Of a stretch of DNA of 21,625 nucleotides, positions 5,113-21,625 are shown one piece after another. Location of the stretch: the IMG/VR virus record IMGVR_UViG_2645727608_000013. One strand, written 5' to 3'. The position numbers and the translations under genes are program-made. This DNA comes from a virus. Its lineage: Duplodnaviria; Heunggongvirae; Uroviricota; Caudoviricetes. How positions within the stretch are numbered: the first letter of the stretch is position 1; each line of letters opens with the position of its first letter. The notes under the pieces are model-generated. The model saw only the letters and a program-made list of their open reading frames with translations, was not told where the DNA came from and did not search any database.

Positions 5113-6303
5113 TTAATTGCTGTTAACCGAAGTGACCAGATTTGCCAGGTATTTATCGGTAATACGCTGGCGCAGGGTCAGGTTTTCGAGAGGAGGCACC
5201 GGTGTATAGTCGTAGTCGATATACAGTTTTCCGGCCTTGAGGGTTTCCGCATCATTGGATTCTTCGCTGAACCAGCAGGTCGCATCCACGATATAGCCGT
5301 TTGTTTTCAGCTCACGGAATTTGGCATTGATGCCGTCAACGATGTCGCGAATCAGCGTTGCAGTGATGGGCTTGTCCACCGCCCACATGTGCGCCTCAGC
5401 CATCGTGTCGGCCAGCACCTGCGCGGTGCGGGTGTAGTTTTCAAAGAGGAACAGCGGGTCATCAGAGCAGGTACGGTTACCCCAGAAGCGGAAACCGTCA
5501 CGGCGAATCAGCGTTGTGACACCTGACTCGTTCAACAGGTCAGCATCGGTGCCGGACTCCTGCAAATCCCAGAAAACAGAGGCACTGATGCCGGTAACAC
5601 CGTTTACCCCGACGTTGGACAGCGTTTTATGCCAGCCCTGCTCCTGGTCGATTTTAGCGCGCAGGCCCAGCGCACGGGCGGTGGCATACGCGGTGGCGGT
5701 GGTACTGGCGACCGTATCCCATGCGAGGAAATCCGGCCAGATGACCATCAGCTCACGCTGGCTGAAATTCTGGCGGTAGGCTTTCACCTCGGAAATGGTC
5801 TTACAGCCCCATGCGCTGATATACCCGAAAGCGCGCAGCTTCTGACAGACTGATGCCAGTGCAACAGCCACCTCTTTGGTGTCCAGTCCCGGCACGCCGA
5901 GAATACGCGGTTTAACACCGGTTACTGACTCCGCCGCCAGCAGGGCTTTCAGTCCGGTGTACTGACCGTTTTCGTCGGTGGTGCCGATGATATTGGAAAC
6001 GGTCTGCGCGAGTTTCGTTTCTTCGTCTTCGCCGGTGCCGTCTTCCACACGTACGACAACGGTGACCGGTTTTGACTGGTCAGCGATGGCCTGTAACGAC
6101 GCCGCCAGCGTGCCTTTTTTACCGGCCTTTGCAATTGCGCTCTGCACATTGGTAATCAGCACCGGTTTATTGAGGGGGAAGATTTCCGCATCCGCATCGC
6201 TGGCCGTGCAGACCATGCCAACAATGGCGGTGGATACGGTGGAAATGACGCGGGTGCCGTCGTTAATCTCCTGCACCTGCACGCCGTGATGATAGTCACT
6301 CAT
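5113..6303 (-). CDS. FI: Contractile tail sheath protein (P2 gpFI-like)
   Basis: 396-aa ORF matching P2 FI; GGAG Shine-Dalgarno 8 nt upstream of the ATG (minus strand, 6312..6315). Confidence 0.9.
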   Translation of the reverse strand: MSDYHHGVQVQEINDGTRVISTVSTAIVGMVCTASDADAEIFPLNKPVLITNVQSAIAKAGKKGTLAASLQAIADQSKPVTVVVRVEDGTGEDEETKLAQTVSNIIGTTDENGQYTGLKALLAAESVTGVKPRILGVPGLDTKEVAVALASVCQKLRAFGYISAWGCKTISEVKAYRQNFSQRELMVIWPDFLAWDTVASTTATAYATARALGLRAKIDQEQGWHKTLSNVGVNGVTGISASVFWDLQESGTDADLLNESGVTTLIRRDGFRFWGNRTCSDDPLFLFENYTRTAQVLADTMAEAHMWAVDKPITATLIRDIVDGINAKFRELKTNGYIVDATCWFSEESNDAETLKAGKLYIDYDYTPVPPLENLTLRQRITDKYLANLVTSVNSN

Positions 6304-6375
6304 CCGTTTAACTCCGTGGTTAATGGGTGCAACTATTTTCTGTTGGGCAGTGCATAAGACGCTATTTGACCTGAC

Positions 6376-6393
6376 TGGTCAGTGGATGAAACA
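6376..6393 (-). promoter_or_regulatory. Candidate Ogr-type late-promoter activator site upstream of FI (TGT-N12-CCA, one mismatch to the TGT-N12-ACA dyad)
   Basis: Minus strand reads TGT-N12-CCA at 6393..6376, centred about 82 nt upstream of the FI ATG, which is about -55 if the transcript starts ~25-30 nt upstream of the ATG; P2 late promoters carry a TGT-N12-ACA element near -55 (recalled, not verified). Confidence 0.3.
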
Positions 6394-6394
6394 A

Positions 6395-6427
6395 CAGATT
6401 AAAGAAAAGGCGGGCAACTCGCCCGCC
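6395..6427 (-). terminator. Rho-independent terminator on the minus strand (GGCGGGC-GAGUU-GCCCGCC followed by UUUUCUUU)
   Basis: Perfect 7-bp GC stem at 6409..6415 / 6421..6427 with a 5-nt loop; on the minus strand it is followed by a T-rich run (plus strand 6395..6408 = cagattaaagaaaa). It sits between the AT-rich cargo segment and the FI promoter region. Confidence 0.55.
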
Positions 6428-6621
6428 CGTCCTGATTTGTACTCACTCATTTTTCAACTGACAATTTACATAGCCCAAACGCTATCAAATCTGACAGCCT
6501 ATTTTGAGCGAAAAGCAGACATTAGCATCCTTCTTATAGAAAAGGTAAACCTGCTTCTATTTGTTAATCAATAGAGAGTAAGTCACAATGGCAGATACGA
6601 ATATCGGCTGGAGAAATTAAA

Positions 6622-7704
6622 TTGAAACCAGAGCAAATGAAAAACAGGGAAGAATTAACTAGCTTTGCAACGAAACTTGCTACTCAAATCAAGATGCAAA
6701 CCAGCAGCAATTTAAATGATCTTTCTACAGCCCAAGAGAGCTCGCTATTGCCTCTAATCAATCATGCCTGGGGAGAGCAGTTTGAGGATATGAATAGGAT
6801 ATCCCAAAACTACCCTGGTCTCGACTATGTGCAACCGGGAAAGCGCTTAGGTTTGCAAATGACTGCCACTGCAAGAAAGGTTAAGTATCAGAAAACATTA
6901 GACAAACTTCGAAATAATGAGAAGTTAAAGGGTAAGTTTGACGAGATTTGGTTTTTCGTCCTCACGGCTGAACGCCTACCTGATAACGTACGTGAACACC
7001 CTGACGATTTTCAGTGCAAATATTTCACATTGTACGACCTAGTCGAAAAGGTAATGGGACAGACTTTAGAATTTCAGCGTGATTTTTTGACCCTTGCCCG
7101 GAAAGAATACTCGGATTATTTCTCTCCTGGGGACGTTGCTTTCAATCAGGGGTATTGTGTATCAGAAAACAAGCCGATCCCCTTTGACTTGAGTCTTTTC
7201 AACGCGTTAATTCATACTAATGAATGGTTTGATGATGTTGACGAAGGTGAGCAGATCGTATATGAATTTCTAGAACTTTTTAAAAATAGACTGCGTCAAT
7301 GCACTTTATCTGCTAGAAATCTTTTAAGCAAAATTATCAGTGAGATAAATATACCGAAGAGTACAAGCACGAAAATCGAGTTTCCTGAAAAGCAACTTTT
7401 CGGGCCACTAATGATTGACGATACAAACTATCAATCTTTTTCAAAAGACCTTGATGATTTGTTCGAGATGAGTCTTATTGAACGATGGGACAATTATGTT
7501 GGAATGTACTATAAGGGTGATGATGCATATATCAAAAATGAACGTATGATCAGCGTGTCATTTCCAAAGATTGAACCCGAAATGAATCTGTATGCGGCGT
7601 TATATATCTTTTATGAAAAAAATCATGATATTGCAAAACTTGTGAACGCAATTGAAAATAGTGATTTTTCTCTGCTCGCTGACAGCACTTGCCAAAATAA
7701 TTAG
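6622..7704 (+). CDS. Uncharacterised 360-aa protein occupying the P2 Z/fun hotspot; candidate anti-phage defence or exclusion gene
   Basis: Only long ORF in the ~1.65 kb between FI and G; opposite strand to the flanking late genes; visibly AT-rich against a GC-rich backbone; probable TTG start at 6622 with GGAG 8 nt upstream (first ATG at 6637); acidic, no obvious transmembrane segment, no Walker A, no clear catalytic motif. Confidence 0.75.
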   Translation: MKPEQMKNREELTSFATKLATQIKMQTSSNLNDLSTAQESSLLPLINHAWGEQFEDMNRISQNYPGLDYVQPGKRLGLQMTATARKVKYQKTLDKLRNNEKLKGKFDEIWFFVLTAERLPDNVREHPDDFQCKYFTLYDLVEKVMGQTLEFQRDFLTLARKEYSDYFSPGDVAFNQGYCVSENKPIPFDLSLFNALIHTNEWFDDVDEGEQIVYEFLELFKNRLRQCTLSARNLLSKIISEINIPKSTSTKIEFPEKQLFGPLMIDDTNYQSFSKDLDDLFEMSLIERWDNYVGMYYKGDDAYIKNERMISVSFPKIEPEMNLYAALYIFYEKNHDIAKLVNAIENSDFSLLADSTCQNN

Positions 7705-7880
7705 TTAGTAAAAGGATGCATTTATGCTCTTAGTTACTCACTCTGTTGAATTTATTTTAAGTTATTAATATAGATATGGGCTTATATATCTTTAATAGAA
7801 ATGACTAGCGTGAAAAATATGGGGCTAACTGGTCTGCCTCTCTTTTGACCAAGACAATTTGCTGGAAAACTTCCGCTCTT

Positions 7881-7920
7881 GGCACAGAGCGGACTGTCAG
7901 ATTAGACTTTACTCTGTGCC
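7881..7920. other. Imperfect hairpin (9-bp stem GGCACAGAG / CTCTGTGCC, ~22-nt loop) between the cargo ORF and G; weak candidate terminator
   Basis: Inverted repeat at 7881..7889 and 7912..7920; no strong T-run on either side, so terminator function is uncertain. Confidence 0.25.
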
Positions 7921-7955
7921 ATAGATATGTAAGCTCCCACCAGAGCTCATACAAC

Positions 7956-8483
7956 TTACTGCGGCATTTCCGGCCATTCAGGATTTGCAGGATCCACACG
8001 GCTGACCAGAACACTGTAGCGTTCCCATGCCTCCAGTCGACTGCGCTCCTCATCTGTTGCCATATTCAGCCTGACAGCGCGCTCCAGCGGCAAAATCACG
8101 GATTCAGCTTCGGAAAGTAAAGTTGCCTTTTGTGATTCTGCCAGTTGCTGCTGTTCGTCTGCCGTATAAATCCGCTTAATCACGGCACCATCCTTAAACA
8201 TCCATTTACCTGAGTCATCAGCACGTCGGTTTGCGGTAATATCAGGAACCTCAACAACGCTAAAACCTTCAGGGTTAAGCGTTGAAGCATCTCTGGTGAT
8301 GCCGACAATTATATTATTCTCGTCGTAAACAATCTTTATCGTGTCTTCCTGAAAATTACTTACTTCCTCATACCATTTTTTTCCGTCTTCAGACCATAAC
8401 CAGATAACATCAAAATTTTTTGTCAGTTGATATTGGGCAACAGTTTTGGGATTACCCGCAGTAATATTTTTTAAATGCTGCAT
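7956..8483 (-). CDS. G: Tail fibre assembly chaperone (P2 gpG-like)
   Basis: 175-aa ORF, same length as P2 gpG; immediately downstream of H. Confidence 0.85.
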
Positions 8484-8486
8484 AAA

Positions 8487-10577
8487 TTACACCTGTGCGA
8501 CGTTATACCATGTGCCATTAATGTATTTTTGTATTGGTCTGAATACTGCCGGATCATCGCCATCAACTTCGCCGACAATGCCAAGCCCTGTAATTACATG
8601 GCCTGATTTCTCATACATCACGCCTTTTTGCATGGTCTGAACAACACGCGTACCCAGGCGAACATCTTTCACATAGCGGGAATCAAAATTTCCGTAATCT
8701 GATGGGTTAACACGTCCAGTAACACTCAGACCATGCCCCATTGACACTCCGCCATTAGCGTTATTGATAGTCAGCGGCCTTAAACCGTTCCATGACCCAA
8801 ATTTATCGCCAGAGGCCGTCAGCATTAAATATGTGCTGCCACCATCATTCCTGATAAAGAATCCATAATTGCCATAAGCAATGCGCAGACCATTAGCACT
8901 GAGTGATGTAATTTCACCTCTAGAACGAAGACCATAAGCGGAGCTGAGTGATAATTCTTCCTGAGCGTCATAGTTTCCTGTCGCCCAGCGAATTACCCCG
9001 CCCTGTACTGTTTCATGCCAGATAGTGTCTCCTTCTCCACCACGAAACTTTCTGAGATATTTTTTGCCGCCTCTGGTGCCTGAACATAAGGCCGTAGACA
9101 TATAGGCATTCTGGCTTCCGCCATCCTGATTAATCGTTCCGGTCATTGCGTCGCCCTGACGATTCCAGTCACGACGCCAGCCGGGGGAGTAGCCGTCCCC
9201 ATGATTAATGTAAGTGAATTGCGCGCTGGTTGTACCGCCACCACTTGATGTTGTCGGCGTGGTCACTCGGATAGTGATTGCAGATTTAGTTCCCATGACC
9301 TCGACGACACAACCAGCCAGGTGGATATCACCACATCCGGTATCCGTAATGATTTTGTTATTTGCATATGACCAGGAGCCTTTGCACATCCAGTACGGAT
9401 GATTAAATGCACCACGGGAATCCAGCCATTCAATAAACTGAGCGGTTGTCCAGTTTCCGGCTTCAGTGCTCAAAGCGCCGCTAAAAGCACGACAGGCACC
9501 GATATTTTTCGTGAAGGTATCCTTTCCCGGAATATCCGCACCGTTCTGATCTTTCTGAAGACGTTTTTCAGCATTGTCATAGGCAGACTTCACCGCTTTT
9601 GGTGTTGCAGCCAGCGTTTCAGAATCGCTGTTGGTGGCGCTACTGAGCTGGACAAGACCTTTTCGCGCTGTGGTGGCATCCTGTGCAGTGTATTTCCCGT
9701 TAGCAAGGTCATACACTGTCTTAACCGCCTTTGGCGTTGCCGCAAGCGTTTCAGAATCGCTGTTGGTGACGCTACTGAGCTGGACAAGGCATTTTCGCGC
9801 TGTGGTGGCGTCCTGTGCAGTGTATTTCCCGTTAGCAAGGTCATATGCTGCCTTAACCGCTTTTGGTGTTGCGGCGAGCATTTCAGACGTGCTGTTGGTG
9901 GCACTACTGAGCTGGACAAGCCCTTTTCGCGCTGTGGTGGCGTCCTGTGCGGTATATTTCCCGTTAGCAAGGTCATAGGCGGCCTTTACCGCTTTCGGCG
10001 TTGCGGCCAGTGTTTCAGACGTGCTGTTGGTCGCGCTGCTTAACTGAGTAAAACCTTTTGCGGTCAGCGAGGCGTCCGGGTGACGTCGTGACTGTTCGTG
10101 CTCTGCAATTTTGTCATCAACATAATCCTGCGTTGCCATCACCGTTGTGGTGTCAATGGTCAGCTCCACTGAGGCCACACTGCTGACGATGATGACCATA
10201 CGGCAGGTCTGCGAACGCCCTGAGCCTTCGGCAAGAGCTGGCTTATAACTTTCGGCCATGTTCGCCACGGCAATTAACGTTCCCGCATCATCGTACAGGC
10301 CAAGCTCACGCATCCAGAAACCGCCCACCTCCGGCGGAATAACCAGCTCTGCGATAATATAATTACTGTTTCGTTTGTCCTGGCTGATTTTGTTCAGCGC
10401 ATGTCGCCAGACTTCATGGATAAGCCCGGTCTGTCCGGCATCCGGGACAGGCAATTTACCCCCGCCATCCCCGACGGCCATCGTGGTAATGTTGACCTTC
10501 CGCCCTCCCGGTGCGGTTGCCGCTGCCAGCTTTGCTGCACCGGCAGTGGTGATAACGGTTCTGAATTTTGTGCTCAT
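8487..10577 (-). CDS. H: Tail fibre protein (P2 gpH-like N-terminus, divergent C-terminal receptor-binding region, four internal tandem repeats)
   Basis: 696-aa ORF; N-terminal ~170 aa matches P2 gpH as I remember it (MSTKFRTVITTAGAAKLAAATAPGG...); C-terminal half differs from my memory of P2 H (669 aa). Confidence 0.85.
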   Translation of the reverse strand: MSTKFRTVITTAGAAKLAAATAPGGRKVNITTMAVGDGGGKLPVPDAGQTGLIHEVWRHALNKISQDKRNSNYIIAELVIPPEVGGFWMRELGLYDDAGTLIAVANMAESYKPALAEGSGRSQTCRMVIIVSSVASVELTIDTTTVMATQDYVDDKIAEHEQSRRHPDASLTAKGFTQLSSATNSTSETLAATPKAVKAAYDLANGKYTAQDATTARKGLVQLSSATNSTSEMLAATPKAVKAAYDLANGKYTAQDATTARKCLVQLSSVTNSDSETLAATPKAVKTVYDLANGKYTAQDATTARKGLVQLSSATNSDSETLAATPKAVKSAYDNAEKRLQKDQNGADIPGKDTFTKNIGACRAFSGALSTEAGNWTTAQFIEWLDSRGAFNHPYWMCKGSWSYANNKIITDTGCGDIHLAGCVVEVMGTKSAITIRVTTPTTSSGGGTTSAQFTYINHGDGYSPGWRRDWNRQGDAMTGTINQDGGSQNAYMSTALCSGTRGGKKYLRKFRGGEGDTIWHETVQGGVIRWATGNYDAQEELSLSSAYGLRSRGEITSLSANGLRIAYGNYGFFIRNDGGSTYLMLTASGDKFGSWNGLRPLTINNANGGVSMGHGLSVTGRVNPSDYGNFDSRYVKDVRLGTRVVQTMQKGVMYEKSGHVITGLGIVGEVDGDDPAVFRPIQKYINGTWYNVAQV
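9578..10060. repeat. Four tandem ~120-bp (40-aa) in-frame repeats inside tail fibre gene H
   Basis: Near-identical units visible in the nucleotide sequence, encoding repeats of ...QLSSATNS(T/D)SE(T/M)LAATPKAVKAAYDLANGKYTAQDATTARK...; the six-frame track shows repeated peptides in both strands over 9590..9978. Confidence 0.85.
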
Positions 10578-12371: not shown

Positions 12372-13003
12372 AGAGGACTCCCGGTTGTGCCGCCGCTGTC
12401 GCCGGGGTGTTTATGGGTATGCAGTACCTTACCGTTTGATGAGAGTTCACCGCCGGTGTGTTCAATGTTGCCGCGCATCGTCCCGCCCTTCTGCACTTCC
12501 AGCGTGCCGGTAGTCAGCTTGTTAGTGCAGACCACTTCCGGTGTGTCCAGGGTGACGCGGGTTGATGCTTTCACCGTGACCACCGGCACCGTGGCAGTAA
12601 CAGAATCAGAAGCCGTCACGCTGGCCGTTTTAATTCCGCTTACCGTGAGTACACTGGTTTCAGGTTCATACTCAATCACCGCCCCGTCAGGGAAACGGAT
12701 ATGCAGGGCATCCGCCGACGCAGACGGTGCGGGGTTATCGCCGGAATAAATCCCCGGCAGAACGAACGCCGTGTCGAGTTCACCGCCCACGGCCAGAATC
12801 AGCACCTGTTCCCCCACGGAAGGTGCCCACCATGTGCGCGAACGTCCGGCGCGATGAGTCAGCCACTGAAGCCAGTCGGTGCACATGCCGCCGGTCTGCA
12901 CACGGCAGCGACCGGCATTAAGGTCGGTTTCGACGACAAGGCCGGTGCGGATCATGTTGCGCAGTGCGCGCGCGATTTCCTGAATATTTGCGAGAGTGTT
13001 CAT
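12368..13003 (-). CDS. V: Baseplate spike protein V (P2 gpV-like)
   Basis: 211-aa ORF matching P2 gpV in length; first gene of the V-W-J-I-H-G block. Confidence 0.85.
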   Translation of the reverse strand: MNTLANIQEIARALRNMIRTGLVVETDLNAGRCRVQTGGMCTDWLQWLTHRAGRSRTWWAPSVGEQVLILAVGGELDTAFVLPGIYSGDNPAPSASADALHIRFPDGAVIEYEPETSVLTVSGIKTASVTASDSVTATVPVVTVKASTRVTLDTPEVVCTNKLTTGTLEVQKGGTMRGNIEHTGGELSSNGKVLHTHKHPGDSGGTTGSPL

Positions 13004-13069
13004 AACGGGAAGGATGCCGCCGGGTCATACCGGCGGCAATGTGACGATGAGGTGTCGGGAATGGCACAA

Positions 13070-13522
13070 CTAACGGTCGAGGTGAGCCAGGATAATCTCT
13101 TCAATCATCTGCACATCCTCACCGGTAAAGCCGAGCAGAGGACGCGCCGGATAATCAATTTTCTTACCGTCTTTCCGGGTTTCTTCCGACAGACCGAACT
13201 GATGCACACTGGCTATTTTCGGTGACTTCCCGCCGTAAAACTCCATTGATGCCTGTTCAGGGCTGGCGCGGATATGCAAAAAACGACTGGTGATAAGTTT
13301 CGCAAACATTTTTCGTTTAACGCGACCGGTCTTTTTTCTGGCGCTCTGCTGCTGGCGTGGTGCGTAGGGTGTGCCGTCCGGGGCTTTCTGTGCCATCACC
13401 CGGCGCTGCTGACTCTGCCACAGACGTTTCGCCAGTTCGGTACTCAGTCGCCGACGCCCTGACGGTGACAGCGATTCAATCAGTCCGGTCAGCCGGTCTT
13501 CAAAACGCTTAAACTCATTCAT
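13070..13522 (-). CDS. S: Tail completion protein S (P2 gpS-like)
   Basis: 150-aa ORF matching P2 gpS in length; downstream of R. Confidence 0.85.
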   Translation of the reverse strand: MNEFKRFEDRLTGLIESLSPSGRRRLSTELAKRLWQSQQRRVMAQKAPDGTPYAPRQQQSARKKTGRVKRKMFAKLITSRFLHIRASPEQASMEFYGGKSPKIASVHQFGLSEETRKDGKKIDYPARPLLGFTGEDVQMIEEIILAHLDR

Positions 13523-18415: not shown

Positions 18416-19237
18416 TCAGCAGTTCGTCATCAGGGCATCACCGCCACCGCCGGTGGCCTTGCTGCGGCGCTGCTGGGTCAGACTTTCGGTGCTGTCGAGA
18501 CTGTTTTTCAGGCGGGTGAATGCCTGGCTGGTTTCATCCGCCCTGTCAGTCACATCCTGCTTAAGTGCGGAAAAAGCGGTTTCCATCTCAGCGAGGCGCT
18601 GCTCAGTGGCACTCAGTTTTTCCTGCACATGTTCAGCAACAGCGGTCACCGCTTCATGCACATCATTCAGACGGGCGTCATCGCTGGCCTGTTTGCGGCT
18701 AAAAATGGATTTCACCTTTTCGGTCAGGGCGGTGAACACGGTTTCAGGCAGGTCTTCAAATTCCAGCTCAACAGGCGTTGCCACTGAAATCAGGTTTTCA
18801 GGGCTTAATTTGAAGCGGTTCAGGGGGTTGTGTTTTGCCGTGCGGCAGAATTCCAGGTATTCCGTGCCGAGGCTTGCCGGGTCATCGGTGACGGCCAGCC
18901 CCACCAGATAACATTTGCCGGTGTTGGCAAAGTTCGGCTGAATTTCCATTGAGGTGTAGACCTTCTGCGCGGCCTTGTTCATCGCGATAAGGTCATCGGT
19001 CGGGGTGATTTTCGCAAACAGCGCCCATTTGCCTTTCAGCGCCGAATCATCGTCAATCTTTTCGGCCTTCAGTTCGACCACATCGCCATAACGCTTAAAA
19101 ATACCGTCAGGCAGGATGCCGCGCAGATGTTCCAGGTTAATGCGGCAACCATAGACTCGCGGGTCAAAGGTTTCGGCCATTTCCTGAATATCCTGCGCAC
19201 TGATGACACGCCCGTCACAGGTGTCACCCTCAACGCC
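18416..19237 (-). pseudogene. O: Capsid scaffold gene O, 5'-truncated by IS insertion (about the first 10 codons of P2 gpO missing on this side)
   Basis: The frame stays open upstream of the track's internal start (19180) and encodes AGVEGDTCDGRVISAQDIQEMAETFDP..., matching residues ~11 onward of P2 gpO (284 aa) as I remember them; similarity stops near 19237/19238 where the IS terminal repeats begin; in-frame TAA at 19244..19246. Confidence 0.7.
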
Positions 19238-19246
19238 TGCGTATTA

Positions 19247-19322
19247 CCGTGAAGGAGATCGGTGAGTAACATCGATGGAGATCGGTTCGTGTCACTTTCA
19301 CAGAACCGTTTTTAAATTACCT
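19247..19322. repeat. IS21-family terminal repeat region (multiple short direct and inverted repeats, probable IstA binding sites)
   Basis: GGAGATCGGT at 19254..19263 and 19276..19285; the inverted copy GATCTCCTTCGG at 19309..19320; the minus-strand IS terminus ends ...ACGCA at 19238. Confidence 0.5.
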
Positions 19323-20072
19323 TCACTGATCTCCTTCGGTCAACGGAGATTGTATTTTCCGCATTGATTCTCCTTTAAGTTCGATCTTGATACTGCCATG
19401 AACCAGTCGATCTAGGATGGCATCCGCATGTGTGGAGTCTCCGATCATTTTGTACCAGTTTTCCACCGGCAACTGGCTCACTACGATGATTGAGCCTCGT
19501 TGGTACATCAGATCCACTATTTCCAGCAGGTCGCTACGCTGTTCTGATGAGAGAGGTTCCAGCCCCCAGTCATCCAGAAGCAGCAGATCGCTATTATTCA
19601 GCCTGGTCAAAAGTTTGCTGTATCTTCCATCAGCATGCCCCTGATAGCACTGTTCCATCAGCGCTTTAAGGCGATAATAGTAGACCTTGTATCCCTGTCG
19701 GCAGGCATTATGACCAAGTGCACATGCCAGGAACGTTTTACCGCTGCCGGTGGCCCCGGTCAGTAAAATATTTTGTTTCAGGGTTAACCAGTTTCCCTGA
19801 CTGAGTGAACGGATGAGGGCCCTGTCCAGCCCTCTATTGTTACGATAATCCAGCTTTGATAACTCAGCATTAAGTCTGAACCGTGCATGTTTGATCAGAC
19901 GCTCTGCCTTCCTGTTTTCACGGCAGGTTAGTTCTTCTGCTGTCAGTAATGACAGGCGTTCTTCGAAGCCCAGCTCCTGGTATGTGCCCGGTTGAGCAAG
20001 TTGCTTTTTAAGCGCATCACGGAAGCCGGTGAGTTTAAGTGCGGTCAGTTGTTCGTAAAGATGATTCATCAT
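19323..20072 (-). CDS. istB: IS21-family transposition helper ATPase IstB
   Basis: 249-aa ORF with Walker A (GATGSGKT) and Walker B (LLLLDDWG) motifs; directly downstream of istA. Confidence 0.9.
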   Translation of the reverse strand: MMNHLYEQLTALKLTGFRDALKKQLAQPGTYQELGFEERLSLLTAEELTCRENRKAERLIKHARFRLNAELSKLDYRNNRGLDRALIRSLSQGNWLTLKQNILLTGATGSGKTFLACALGHNACRQGYKVYYYRLKALMEQCYQGHADGRYSKLLTRLNNSDLLLLDDWGLEPLSSEQRSDLLEIVDLMYQRGSIIVVSQLPVENWYKMIGDSTHADAILDRLVHGSIKIELKGESMRKIQSPLTEGDQ

Positions 20073-20083
20073 TGGATCCCGTA

Positions 20084-21625
20084 TCAGTGGTAATACTCAC
20101 TGCCGCGTACGTTTTCGTGTTCCATCGTGGATAACAGATCTGGTTTTGGATCCTGAACAGGTTGTTTATCCAGACCTTTTTCCAGGATCGATTTAATACC
20201 TGACAGACGCCATACCTTTGTTTTCAGAGCTCTTGCACATGCTGCATTAAGTCTGGCTTTACTGTATTTTTTATGAAGGTTCAGGAGTCCAAGGCAGAAG
20301 CGATAGCTTTGTTCCGGATGTGGACGAGAGTTCAGTATATGAAGCACATAACTATGAGTTTCACTGCCTATGTGCCCCGCCCATTCCAGAAGACGCTCTG
20401 GCGTCCAGGTGGCATGCTGTCGATGAGCTTCAGGCATGTGCTCGTTGCGGGTACTGTAGCCATAAGTACGCTTGCGCGGGTGCACAGCAACCTCCTGCCC
20501 CTGATTGAAGAGTCTTACCAGTTCTCCGGAGATCCATGCTTCCAGTTGCTGGCCTAACAGCGAACATGGAACCGAGTAGTAATGTTTGTCGATTTCCACG
20601 TGGTAATCGGCATGAACTCTGACTTTCTTCACCAGGGTGTAACTGTAACTGGCTTCAGGAAGAGGCTTCAGTGCGGGTTTATCAAGCTGGATGAAGAGTT
20701 CTGCACGTGAATAACCCAACTTCTGCATTATTTTGTTATTCAGTCTTTCCAGCAACTCCCGAATGCGCTGATTAAGCGATGCAAGGCTGTAGAAGATCTC
20801 ATGCCTGATTCGGGCCATGATCCAGCGTTCAACAACCTGAACGCCAACTTCAGCTTTGGCTTTATCTTTCGGTTTACGTGGCCGCGCAGGCAAAACTGCG
20901 ACATTATAATGCTCAAGCATCTGCTGGTAGGTAGGGTTAACGTCAGGATCATACTTACATGCCCTGGATGTGGCGCTTTTCAGATTGTCCGGAACAACAA
21001 GTTCAGGAACGCCACCCAACCACTGGAAGCAGCGAACATGACTCATCACCCAGTCTTCAAGCTGCTGAGACCAGGTGGCCTCTGCCCATGTGTAACTTGA
21101 TGCCCCGAGAACAGCTACGATGACCTGAGCAGTTCTTATTTCTCCGGTCTCAGGGTCGGTAACGCCAACGGTAGGTCCACAGTAATCAACGAAAAGTTTT
21201 TCGCCAGCTTTATGTACCTGACGCATTGATGGTGAAGTGGTTTTGAGCCATTCACGGTACATCCGGCAGTAATGGTTATAGCTGTAAAAACCGCCTGGAT
21301 TACGCTCACAGTATTCTTCCCAGAGTAGCTGCAGCGTCACGCATTTATTACGCAGTTCCCGGTGTACTGTAGCCCAGTCAGGCAGAGAGTGCTTCTTCAT
21401 CTTAACCTGGGTCTGAAGGAACGCATGTTTTAGTTTTGTATCATCCCATCCTGTAGGTAAGGGCCACTGCTTTATGCCAAGTTGAGCCGCCCGATTAGCA
21501 TATCTGGATACAACGGAAGGGGAGATTGCAAGACTACGACCAATTTGTCGATGGCTGAGTCCAACACCGTATTTAAGCCTAAGAATTTCTTTAAGTTTTC
21601 TCATAGAAATTGGAACTGTTGGCAT
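20084..21625 (-). CDS. istA: IS21-family transposase IstA (N-terminal HTH, DDE catalytic core)
   Basis: 513-aa ORF whose start ATG is at the window edge (21623..21625); N-terminal helix-turn-helix-like region followed by a large integrase-like core; paired with istB. Confidence 0.85.
   Translation of the reverse strand: MPTVPISMRKLKEILRLKYGVGLSHRQIGRSLAISPSVVSRYANRAAQLGIKQWPLPTGWDDTKLKHAFLQTQVKMKKHSLPDWATVHRELRNKCVTLQLLWEEYCERNPGGFYSYNHYCRMYREWLKTTSPSMRQVHKAGEKLFVDYCGPTVGVTDPETGEIRTAQVIVAVLGASSYTWAEATWSQQLEDWVMSHVRCFQWLGGVPELVVPDNLKSATSRACKYDPDVNPTYQQMLEHYNVAVLPARPRKPKDKAKAEVGVQVVERWIMARIRHEIFYSLASLNQRIRELLERLNNKIMQKLGYSRAELFIQLDKPALKPLPEASYSYTLVKKVRVHADYHVEIDKHYYSVPCSLLGQQLEAWISGELVRLFNQGQEVAVHPRKRTYGYSTRNEHMPEAHRQHATWTPERLLEWAGHIGSETHSYVLHILNSRPHPEQSYRFCLGLLNLHKKYSKARLNAACARALKTKVWRLSGIKSILEKGLDKQPVQDPKPDLLSTMEHENVRGSEYYH

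Follow-up and report, generated by a model that had tools for sequence, protein, structure and literature searches.

The late genes of this P2-like prophage are interrupted between FI and G by one gene that runs the other way, which raises the question of whether the insert is a one-gene anti-phage defence and, if so, by what means it might act. A first-pass annotation of the window (here, the whole 21,625-nucleotide stretch that was analysed) had read the interval 6428-7955 as an AT-rich, horizontally acquired cargo at the variable Z/fun site of P2, encoding an unrecognised protein amid genes that were otherwise all P2 late genes.

A foreign single-gene segment at the P2 FI/G site

The acquisition at this site stands, within narrower limits. 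Homology of the window to both P2 and P2_2H1 stops at 6525/6526 and restarts at 7880/7883; because the backbone ends at 6525 and resumes at 7880, the true foreign segment is 6526..7879, about 1.35 kb (Table 1). In comparison with P2-like phages, its flanks are 87-95% identical to P2 and its interior is unrelated, and the FI/G site displays conserved flanks around non-homologous inserts of differing size. The AT richness holds as well: GC is 0.374 in the segment versus 0.546 in the remaining window, a GC scan gives 0.32-0.42 over the cargo ORF and 0.54-0.59 in the flanks, and GC3 is 0.39 for the ORF versus 0.68 for FI. The segment contains one ORF only, the sole long plus-strand ORF amid minus-strand P2 late genes, with FI and G as the adjoining genes; no antitoxin-like partner ORF was found within it, and no Rfam RNA family within 6250..8050. 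Elsewhere in the window the gene content departs from the P2 late set, an IS21-family element (IstB and transposase) occupying 19323..21625 and having removed the first 11 codons of gene O.

Earlier work documents the P2 FI/G site as a defence hotspot (PMC9519451, PMC13586616, bioRxiv 10.1101/2024.10.15.618418), and Vassallo et al. 2022 (PMC9519451) describe the fun locus as a second P2 defence hotspot. The earlier attribution of this hotspot to Rousset et al. 2022 is not supported, as Vassallo et al. state that the fun locus ‘was not noted’ there.

Both edges of the segment are accompanied by hairpins. The one detected by a terminator scan lies on the FI side, in the backbone, and late read-through from G would therefore be expected to cross the cargo gene antisense. 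The hairpin beyond G was read from the sequence, forms part of inverted repeat I1, was missed by the terminator scan and is weak. I1 itself (6485-6519 / 7872-7906, 71% complementary), which lies at both cargo edges, was considered as a recombination site and rejected, since chance alone should yield a 10-nt seed about once in 1.8 kb and both arms are backbone, the right one being mostly the hairpin that follows G. Direct repeat D1 (7582-7619 / 7764-7801, 71%), considered as a relic of the 3′ end of an earlier allele, was likewise discarded, being indistinguishable from chance in AT-rich DNA.

Table 1 Features of the cargo segment and its borders, in window coordinates
Feature	Position	Strand	Details
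Terminator-like backbone hairpin	6408..6428	-	Terminator scan; late-gene strand, FI side of cargo, P2-homologous flank
Foreign cargo segment	6526..7879	none	P2 FI/G (Z/fun) variable site, GC 0.374
Promoter-like site	6561..6589	+	TTGTTA, 17 nt spacer, CACAAT; read from sequence
GGAG putative ribosome-binding site	6610..6613	+	8 nt 5′ of TTG start; read from sequence
SMEK domain-containing protein ORF	6622..7704	+	360 aa, TTG start
SMEK_N / Mrr-like PD-(D/E)xK nuclease domain, aa 5-164	6634..7113	+	Pfam, NCBIfam, PADLOC and PDB matches
Family-invariant residue codons	E39 6736-6738; D68 6823-6825; Q79 6856-6858; T81 6862-6864; K88 6883-6885	+	SMEK_N alignment
Variable interdomain linker, aa 167-189	7120..7188	+	Predicted disordered
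C-terminal family-specific acidic domain, aa 190-360	7189..7701	+	Helical, winged-helix-like core, long beta hairpin 287-312
Backbone hairpin just 3′ of G	7873..7892	-	7-bp stem CCGCTCT/AGAGCGG and short T run

A rare cassette spread among mobile elements

Full-length homologues at 30-89% identity occur in several genera, and pairwise dN/dS among homologue pairs is 0.10-0.30 in both halves of the gene; the ORF, correctly placed by the first-pass annotation opposite to its flanking genes, is therefore a real gene and not a chance reading frame. Its product matches phrog_36490 over its full length, for which the PHROG annotation is function unknown. The gene is cargo rather than core, as had been proposed: checked across P2-like prophages, it is present in 21 of the 5426 complete E. 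coli genomes, versus about 1958 P2-type FI flanks in 1690 of these genomes, and its frequency among E. coli P2-like prophages is about 1%. A scan of the genome's contigs returned a single locus.

Outside E. coli P2-like prophages, homologues are found at the same FI/G site of a Morganella P2-like prophage and, in a P4-like satellite, next to its primase; in Acinetobacter prophages they occupy the integrase end, and IncF plasmids of K. pneumoniae carry them too. What has spread among these elements (P2 prophages, a P4-like satellite, plasmids and other prophages) is a cassette of putative promoter plus gene. Both promoter hexamer positions are kept in the Morganella P2-like prophage, the E. kobei chromosome, a K. 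pneumoniae IncF plasmid and an IMG/VR contig. The aligned cassettes also agree in their TTG start, and four of the five retain the GGAG, which is GGAT in the K. pneumoniae plasmid copy. The promoter-like site scores below the threshold of a generic promoter scan, and the cassette probably has its own weak promoter there.

The neighbours of homologues in other genomes are often of defence kinds: AbiH, an AriA/OLD-like ATPase, a Type II restriction-modification pair, an SMC/Ppl-like ATPase cluster, and an Mrr-like nuclease with a methyltransferase. In an Acinetobacter clade at 30-32% identity, a 353-aa ORF follows the gene on the same strand, 27-31 nt 3′ of it, in every contig of that clade reaching past the 3′ end of the gene. 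The copies of this ORF are at least 85% identical to one another and give weak hints of an Hjc/DUF790 nuclease and no PADLOC match; that it is a paralogue of the cargo gene was rejected (hhalign probability 0.07%).

An N-terminal SMEK_N domain with a variant putative active site

The protein is not unrecognised, as had been claimed: RefSeq already names it ‘SMEK domain-containing protein’, and a profile search assigns residues 5-164 to the curated SMEK_N family, with scores well above the curated cut-offs (Pfam PF21941, 1.6e-19, 70.6 bits, cut-off 27; NCBIfam NF033859, 1.9e-24, 85.3 bits, cut-off 30). The SMEK_N profile is matched by 19 of the 20 members of the cargo protein family. The same residues align at 6e-18 with the Mrr domain of a short-Argonaute partner from Kordia jejudonensis (PDB 26bh), and the PADLOC model Aga_REase-PNTD1-PNTD2 is matched at 4e-18 by the N-terminal part alone (model positions 3-113 of 463). 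On these matches, the N-terminal domain belongs to a divergent PD-(D/E)xK, Mrr-like nuclease family with a probable restriction-endonuclease fold, and the first reading, which had seen no unambiguous PD-(D/E)xK signature, missed a divergent domain with a solved relative. The absence of Walker A and HEPN motifs was, by contrast, borne out by a motif scan of the 360-aa protein, which also found no membrane segment. No system protein model of PADLOC-DB v2.0.0 was matched over the full length of the protein, the sole match being the partial, N-terminal one to the Argonaute-associated REase model.

Across 16 diverse aligned SMEK_N sequences (17-33% identity), among them the Kordia domain and proteins from an IncX plasmid and of the Agrobacterium STAND type, residues E39, P65, D68, Q79, T81, K88 and T92 are invariant, and all are intact in the cargo protein. 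The lysine of the classical (D/E)xK motif is replaced (Q79-M-T81), with an invariant lysine in the next helix; catalysis by such a variant Q-x-T site has been demonstrated only weakly, for the Kordia protein, whose SMEK-APAZ/Ago pair has weak collateral DNase activity (PMC12205087). The domain adopts an alpha/beta fold in the AF2 model, with AspBHI, MspJI and DpnI as weak structural relatives; according to Prostova et al., no nuclease is more closely related to the SMEK domain than AspBHI.

SMEK_N is fused to APAZ in short-Argonaute systems (PMC10810196, PMC12205087, bioRxiv 10.1101/2023.06.08.544223) and to an Avs2-like STAND NTPase on Agrobacterium plasmid pAt. Since APAZ, STAND and unrelated C-termini are thus joined to it in different proteins, a shared effector with swappable sensors appears to be the SMEK_N pattern. 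Architectures were taken from plasmid tblastn matches; a profile search with the N-terminal domain returned short fragments only, uninformative on architectures. An IncX SMEK protein considered as sharing the C-terminal domain was rejected, its alignment being limited to residues 11-114.

An acidic C-terminal domain peculiar to the family

A variable linker (pLDDT below 50 at residues 169-181, poorly conserved alignment columns) separates SMEK_N from a C-terminal domain that is acidic in all 20 family members (pI 4.2-5.1) and under purifying selection. This domain is found in about ten sequence clusters among 1.84 billion proteins and in no other architecture, and its 170 residues have no sequence relative in Pfam or PDB. 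The effector is of a known kind, and the C-terminal domain, as judged from these searches, is of no recognised type. In the family alignment, its conserved polar residues are few, and a catalytic motif is absent. Weak matches to AbiJ_NTD4 in four family members (E at least 0.09) were non-significant, and the relationship was rejected.

An initial AlphaFold model that drew on 10 close homologues was poor (pLDDT 57) and was replaced by a confident AF2 model from 20 sequences including 30-39% relatives (pLDDT 83.7 overall). Structure comparison of this final model suggests a winged-helix-like core for the C-terminal domain, all structural matches being weak, and Foldseek against PDB and BFVD returned nothing significant for the model.

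A proposed stand-alone defence nuclease and its alternatives

The effector domain and the neighbours of homologues in other genomes strengthen the defence hypothesis, and the cargo gene is a good candidate for a one-gene anti-phage defence. Our best reading, to which we assign a probability of roughly 0.55, is a stand-alone anti-phage defence nuclease in which the C-terminal domain gates the SMEK effector. Under this reading, a mobile single-gene cassette inserted at the P2 Z/fun variable site would have its protein expressed from the prophage, and we infer a defence role in which the C-terminal domain would serve as sensor or regulator and hold the nuclease quiet until an infection cue releases it or, as we suppose for activation, oligomerises it. 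Because the C-terminal domain is acidic, the cue would probably be a phage protein rather than DNA. Once freed, the nuclease may cut the DNA of the phage, and perhaps that of the host too. Against a defence role count the lack of a PADLOC system model spanning the whole protein, the contexts that are not defence-like and the variant active site without the classical lysine. In the searched literature, we found neither phenotype data for the SMEK cargo family nor a description of a stand-alone SMEK defence gene. A bolder version of the gated nuclease, with the odds against it, is a new mobile defence system consisting of a minimal 360-aa immune nuclease gated by an undescribed acidic sensor with a kleisin-like winged helix, which would recognise a phage protein, conceivably an SMC/Rad50-type ATPase head.

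Among the alternatives, a constitutive Type IV or Type IIM restriction enzyme survives best and is nonetheless unlikely. Here the winged helix would read DNA, recognising for example base modifications in T-even or other phages, and the Mrr-like domain would cut directly, with no infection sensor and no suicide. The structural relatives of the nuclease domain, which include the modification-dependent AspBHI and MspJI, agree with such an enzyme, as do the ranking of AspBHI nearest to SMEK by Prostova et al., the domain order shared with DpnI (catalytic PD-(D/E)xK, then winged helix) and, for Type IV, the expected lack of a methyltransferase beside the gene in the window. The strong acidity of the C-terminal domain throughout the family argues the other way, as does the helix at the recognition position (aa 270-282, QSFSKDLDDLFEM), whose richness in Asp and Glu is unusual for a DNA reader; moreover, profile searches detected no SRA-like or other known modified-base reader.

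Lower still in probability is a cargo unrelated to defence, be it a DNA-damage/SOS-linked nuclease acting with umuDC and SRAP, an anti-plasmid or anti-satellite tool, or a selfish or addiction nuclease. Homologues with umuDC and/or SRAP beside them recur in Acinetobacter prophages, on the E. kobei chromosome and on contig L029, which are three separate settings, and the K. pneumoniae plasmid copies sit among oxidoreductase genes without defence neighbours. However, neither umuDC nor SRAP lies close to the window gene or to the P2 and P4 copies, and since both are often carried at these variable ends of mobile elements, the adjacency may reflect a shared insertion site alone; SMEK_N elsewhere belongs to immune architectures, and the cargo contains neither an antitoxin-like ORF nor an Rfam RNA. 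Finally, the Acinetobacter arrangement, with its additional 353-aa gene that the window lacks, means that a partner could be needed and the window copy be the orphan half of a two-gene system, inactive or partly functional alone, but this is very improbable given that the whole Enterobacterales clade (P2, P4, plasmid and chromosomal copies) and Acinetobacter sp. ANC 3903 lack the partner, that the partnerless copies are under purifying selection over their full length, and that the 353-aa ORF is unrelated in sequence and may be a separate neighbouring gene.

Should the gated nuclease prove protective, it would be among the smallest known cases of a shared nuclease effector with a swappable sensor, it would add a new, small sensor domain, with phage escape mutants as a way to map what triggers it, and it would show the SMEK/Mrr effector, which has so far been studied only in partnership with Argonaute, at work on its own. 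With this family, moreover, the movement of a cassette can be traced between the helper phage P2, the satellite P4, plasmids and unrelated prophages, and attention is drawn to the P2-like prophage of the O145:H28 Shiga-toxin E. coli lineage, from which resistance to phages might derive.

Comparison with known systems

The closest known relative of the effector is that of SMEK-APAZ (Kordia ‘SPARMA’; PDB 26bh), with which the cargo protein shares a homologous nuclease domain over residues 5-164, including the E...P..D...Q-x-T...K...T signature, and, by analogy, might share the principle of a DNA-cutting effector switched on by a sensor part. By contrast, the cargo protein lacks APAZ, as its PADLOC match ends at model position 113 of 463, and its C-terminal domain is unrelated; an Argonaute (MID-PIWI) gene is also absent, the cargo being a single ORF between FI and G. 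With neither APAZ nor an Argonaute gene, guide-nucleic-acid sensing is impossible for this protein.

The Avs/STAND proteins, of which the Avs2-like SMEK-NACHT protein on Agrobacterium pAt has the same N-terminal SMEK_N effector in a single-chain immune protein, likewise place the effector ahead of the sensor part, and Avs4 has an Mrr-like N-terminal domain. They differ in size (roughly 900-1500 aa versus 360 aa) and in the sensor part, which consists of NACHT and repeats in Avs/STAND and of a small, acidic, winged-helix-type domain in the cargo protein, where no NTPase domain, Walker A, NACHT or AAA match is present. Mrr, MspJI, AspBHI and DpnI have a catalytic domain of the restriction-endonuclease fold that the cargo domain probably shares, and DpnI also has a resembling layout of nuclease plus winged helix, the structural matches being weak in each case. 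Conversely, the cargo domain falls in a curated family distinct from Mrr-type enzymes, with the triad lysine replaced (Q-M-T), and its C-terminal domain, unlike those of modification-dependent enzymes, is acidic and has no detectable reader family.

At the level of the locus, the gene resembles P2 Z/fun and the systems of Vassallo et al. 2022 in being a single-locus, AT-rich, swappable cargo at the G-FI site. It nevertheless lies on the strand opposite to that of the P2 occupant, whose product BLASTP relates to the cargo protein at nothing better than E = 7.9, as the first reading had surmised, and it matches none of the PADLOC PD-T4, PD-T7 and PD-lambda models.

A putative nuclease gene at the fun locus of a P2-like prophage

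The window, a P2-like prophage whose late genes occupy the minus strand, shares 97-99% identity with P2-like prophages of E. coli O145:H28 and with phages vB_EcoM-12474II-V. Between FI and G lies a cargo with a GC content of 0.32-0.42 over its ORF versus 0.54-0.59 in the flanks, and a GC3 of 0.39 versus 0.68 in FI; together with the ORF map, these values agree with the first-pass annotation, which had described an AT-rich, single-ORF, plus-strand cargo here. Set against P2 and P2_2H1, the foreign DNA extends from 6526 to 7879, so that the interval proposed earlier (6428..7955) contains the foreign DNA but also about 100 nt and 75 nt of backbone. An imperfect inverted repeat at the cargo edges, and a direct repeat in which the conserved MNLYAALYIFY codons are copied into the 3' untranslated region, are both compatible with chance.

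In P2 and its relatives the site is occupied by unrelated genes of different sizes, and sequence comparison found no similarity between the P2 occupant and the 360-aa protein, which was thus correctly set apart from the P2 Z/fun product. The SMEK gene occurs in 21 of 5426 complete E. coli genomes, as identical copies mostly from O145:H28, against ~1958 P2-type FI flanks in 1690 of these genomes, as expected of variable-hotspot cargo. The view of the site as a defence hotspot also stands, although its source is Vassallo et al. 2022 rather than Rousset et al. 2022: the former identified a second P2 defence hotspot in the fun locus, home to three of their new systems and missed in the Rousset et al. 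description (PMC9519451), and later surveys concur (PMC13586616, bioRxiv 10.1101/2024.10.15.618418).

Full-length homologues (30-89% identity) and a dN/dS of 0.10-0.30 in the N-terminal and C-terminal halves alike establish the ORF as a real gene. Its promoter-like site, a GGAG 8 nt 5' of the start (GGAT in one copy) and the TTG start itself recur at matching positions in the copies of four further genomic contexts, and the mobile unit therefore comprises promoter and gene. The cargo has the sole strong late-strand terminator on its FI side, so late transcription from G may cross the gene, and read-through from the V-to-G operon would be antisense to it; the promoter-like site antisense within the ORF may be AT-rich noise.

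Coordinates of features in the window and in the contigs compared with it
Feature	Sequence	Position	Strand	Remarks
FI	window	5113..6303	minus	P2 late gene flanking cargo
Strong terminator	window	6408..6428	minus	FI side of cargo
35-nt inverted repeat	window	6485..6519 / 7872..7906		71% complementary
Promoter-like TTGTTA-17-CACAAT	window	6561..6589	plus	5' of SMEK ORF
SMEK ORF	window	6622..7704	plus	360 aa; sole long plus-strand ORF between FI and G
Promoter-like TTGATA-16-TATAGT	window	7508..7535	minus	10/12 match
38-nt direct repeat	window	7582..7619 / 7764..7801		71%
G	window	7956..8483	minus	P2 late gene flanking cargo
Tail fibre H	window	8487..10577		repeats around 9170..9900
V/S site	window	13003..13068		65-nt gap only
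IS21-family insertion	window	19238..21625		right end of window
IstB	window	19323..20072	minus	IS21-family element
Transposase	window	20084..21625	minus	IS21-family element; rve and Mu-transposase-C domains
V/S extra gene	L032; L001	22163..22948; 12626..13411	plus	261 aa
SMEK-family gene	L028	554..1636		P4-like satellite
353-aa ORF	L002	9083..10144		equivalent position in L003, L005-L007, L011, L012, L026
307-aa SMEK_N gene	L016	4938..5861		
888-aa SMEK_N-NACHT gene	L017	4977..7643		

A divergent nuclease domain and an acidic C-terminal domain

The protein, initially regarded as unrecognised, matches the curated SMEK_N family over residues 5-164 (Pfam PF21941, 1.6e-19; NCBIfam NF033859, 1.9e-24), as well as PDB 26bh, the 'Mrr domain' of the Kordia jejudonensis Argonaute partner (6e-18), and, in its N-terminal part only, the PADLOC Argonaute-associated REase model (4e-18). 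RefSeq already names it 'SMEK domain-containing protein'; its PHROGs entry is phrog_36490, function unknown. Seven residues invariant among 16 SMEK_N sequences of 17-33% identity (E39, P65, D68, Q79, T81, K88 and T92) are all present, and on profile match and invariant residues the protein is, by sequence, a SMEK_N member. The site is a divergent PD-(D/E)xK in which another residue takes the place of the triad lysine (Q-M-T) and the next helix carries an invariant lysine, which explains why no unambiguous motif had been seen: the classical form is indeed not visible, but a divergent site is there. Residues 1-120, the nuclease core, have a basic pI of 9.4.

Residues 190-360 have no sequence relative in Pfam, PADLOC or the PDB, and exhaustive scanning of 1.84 billion representatives with HMMER returned only 10 clusters, 7 of them complete (351-362 aa) with an identical two-domain layout and 3 consisting of shorter sequences. 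An AlphaFold model built from 20 sequences (pLDDT 83.7) predicts an N-terminal alpha/beta domain, a disordered linker (169-181) and a C-terminal domain that is helical and bears a long beta hairpin. This domain is acidic in all members (pI 4.2-5.1), and its invariant residues are mainly hydrophobic, with no catalytic-looking motif.

Distribution and genomic neighbours

Homologues occupy the same FI/G site in a Morganella P2-like prophage (73% identity) and a minor P4 defence site, beyond or beside the primase, in a P4-like satellite (73%) that also has Ash, AlpA, Delta and Psu; the family is thus found in both helper phage and satellite, as diverged alleles. Others lie on K. pneumoniae IncF plasmids (69-73%; oxidoreductase neighbours), a Citrobacter plasmid-like contig (72%; Mrr-like nuclease and methyltransferase), contig L031 (76%; Type II restriction-modification pair), contig L030 (69%; SMC/Ppl/AriA-like ATPase cluster), Acinetobacter sp. 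ANC 3903 (38%; AriA/OLD-like ATPase) and Acinetobacter prophages (30-32%; integrase end, with AbiH nearby in L002/L003).

SMEK_N also appears in other architectures. A 307-aa protein, with a C-terminus unrelated to that of the window protein, is kept on many IncX1/X3 plasmids (36-48 kb) of Salmonella and E. coli; its gene lies between the topoisomerase/H-NS/Hha block and type IV secretion genes, ~3.5 kb downstream of two HEPN-domain genes. In Agrobacterium tumefaciens Ach5 pAt, an 888-aa protein fuses SMEK_N to an Avs2-like NACHT (STAND) NTPase; two small ORFs and a radical SAM gene follow, a (p)ppGpp synthetase gene is nearby, and the whole suggests an uncharacterised defence locus of the STAND type.

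Proposed function and alternatives

We propose, with a probability of about 0.55, a single-chain defence nuclease whose C-terminal domain would act as infection sensor and as gate for the SMEK effector. This rests on the nuclease domain, which is of immune type and intact, on a C-terminal domain that is conserved and looks non-enzymatic, and on the mobility of the cassette, which brings its own promoter and a weak start codon and resides in defence-rich variable sites. A defence role as such is somewhat more probable than this combined statement, and the specific gating mechanism is tentative, drawn by analogy with SMEK-APAZ/Argonaute and nuclease-STAND proteins, in which target recognition turns on a collateral nuclease (PMC12205087 for the Kordia SMEK-APAZ/Ago). 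An acidic C-terminal domain fits a protein trigger, or autoinhibition, better than DNA reading, and likewise counts against a restriction enzyme of the Type IV or DpnI kind with a DNA-reading winged helix, which we consider unlikely.

Less likely again is a role other than defence, for which recurrent SOS-type neighbours speak (Acinetobacter contigs L002, L003, L005-L007, L011, L012 and L026, plus L010 and L029). SRAP is the immediate upstream neighbour in every Acinetobacter contig reaching that far, with umuDC just past it in L002, L003, L006, L007, L011 and L012; in E. kobei (L010), SRAP is directly upstream and umuDC downstream, and in L029 umuC is directly upstream on the same strand. This adjacency may stem from a common site of insertion or from a functional connection; no umuDC/SRAP gene lies near the SMEK gene in the window.

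That the gene is the orphan of a two-gene system seems very improbable, the model being the Acinetobacter clade, where a conserved 353-aa ORF always lies 27-31 nt 3' of the SMEK-family gene on the same strand. This ORF falls in no Pfam or PADLOC family, its hints of an Hjc/DUF790 nuclease are weak (E about 0.1), and it could be either a partner or an independent neighbour.

Other features of the prophage

Homology to the intact O145 prophage ends at 19237, 33 nt before the gpO start, leaving the capsid-scaffold gene O without its first 11 codons and promoter; given this truncation by the IS21-family element, this prophage copy is probably defective. The V/S interval is a second variable site, within the tail and baseplate region: a hypothetical gene present there in the related O145 RM9872 prophage and vB_EcoM-12474III is absent from the window. 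Tail fibre H contains ~4 tandem copies of a ~44-aa unit (…TAQDATTARKGLVQLSSATNSxSExLAATPKAVKxAYDLANGKY…) whose copy number differs from O145 and 12474III (696 aa in the window versus about 554-642 aa).

Comparison with known systems

The SMEK gene is less mysterious than first supposed, and is a well-founded, cheap-to-test candidate, yet one among many at the hotspot. Its protein belongs to no PADLOC system, the only match being the partial N-terminal one. Lacking an APAZ domain, in a cargo devoid of an Argonaute gene, it falls outside short-Argonaute systems; without an NTPase domain it falls outside Avs/STAND proteins, and without homology to Z/fun, outside that family. The effector, a SMEK nuclease, and the hotspot are of already-known kinds; what is new is the C-terminal domain, along with the 360-aa stand-alone architecture, neither of which is characterised in the searched literature.
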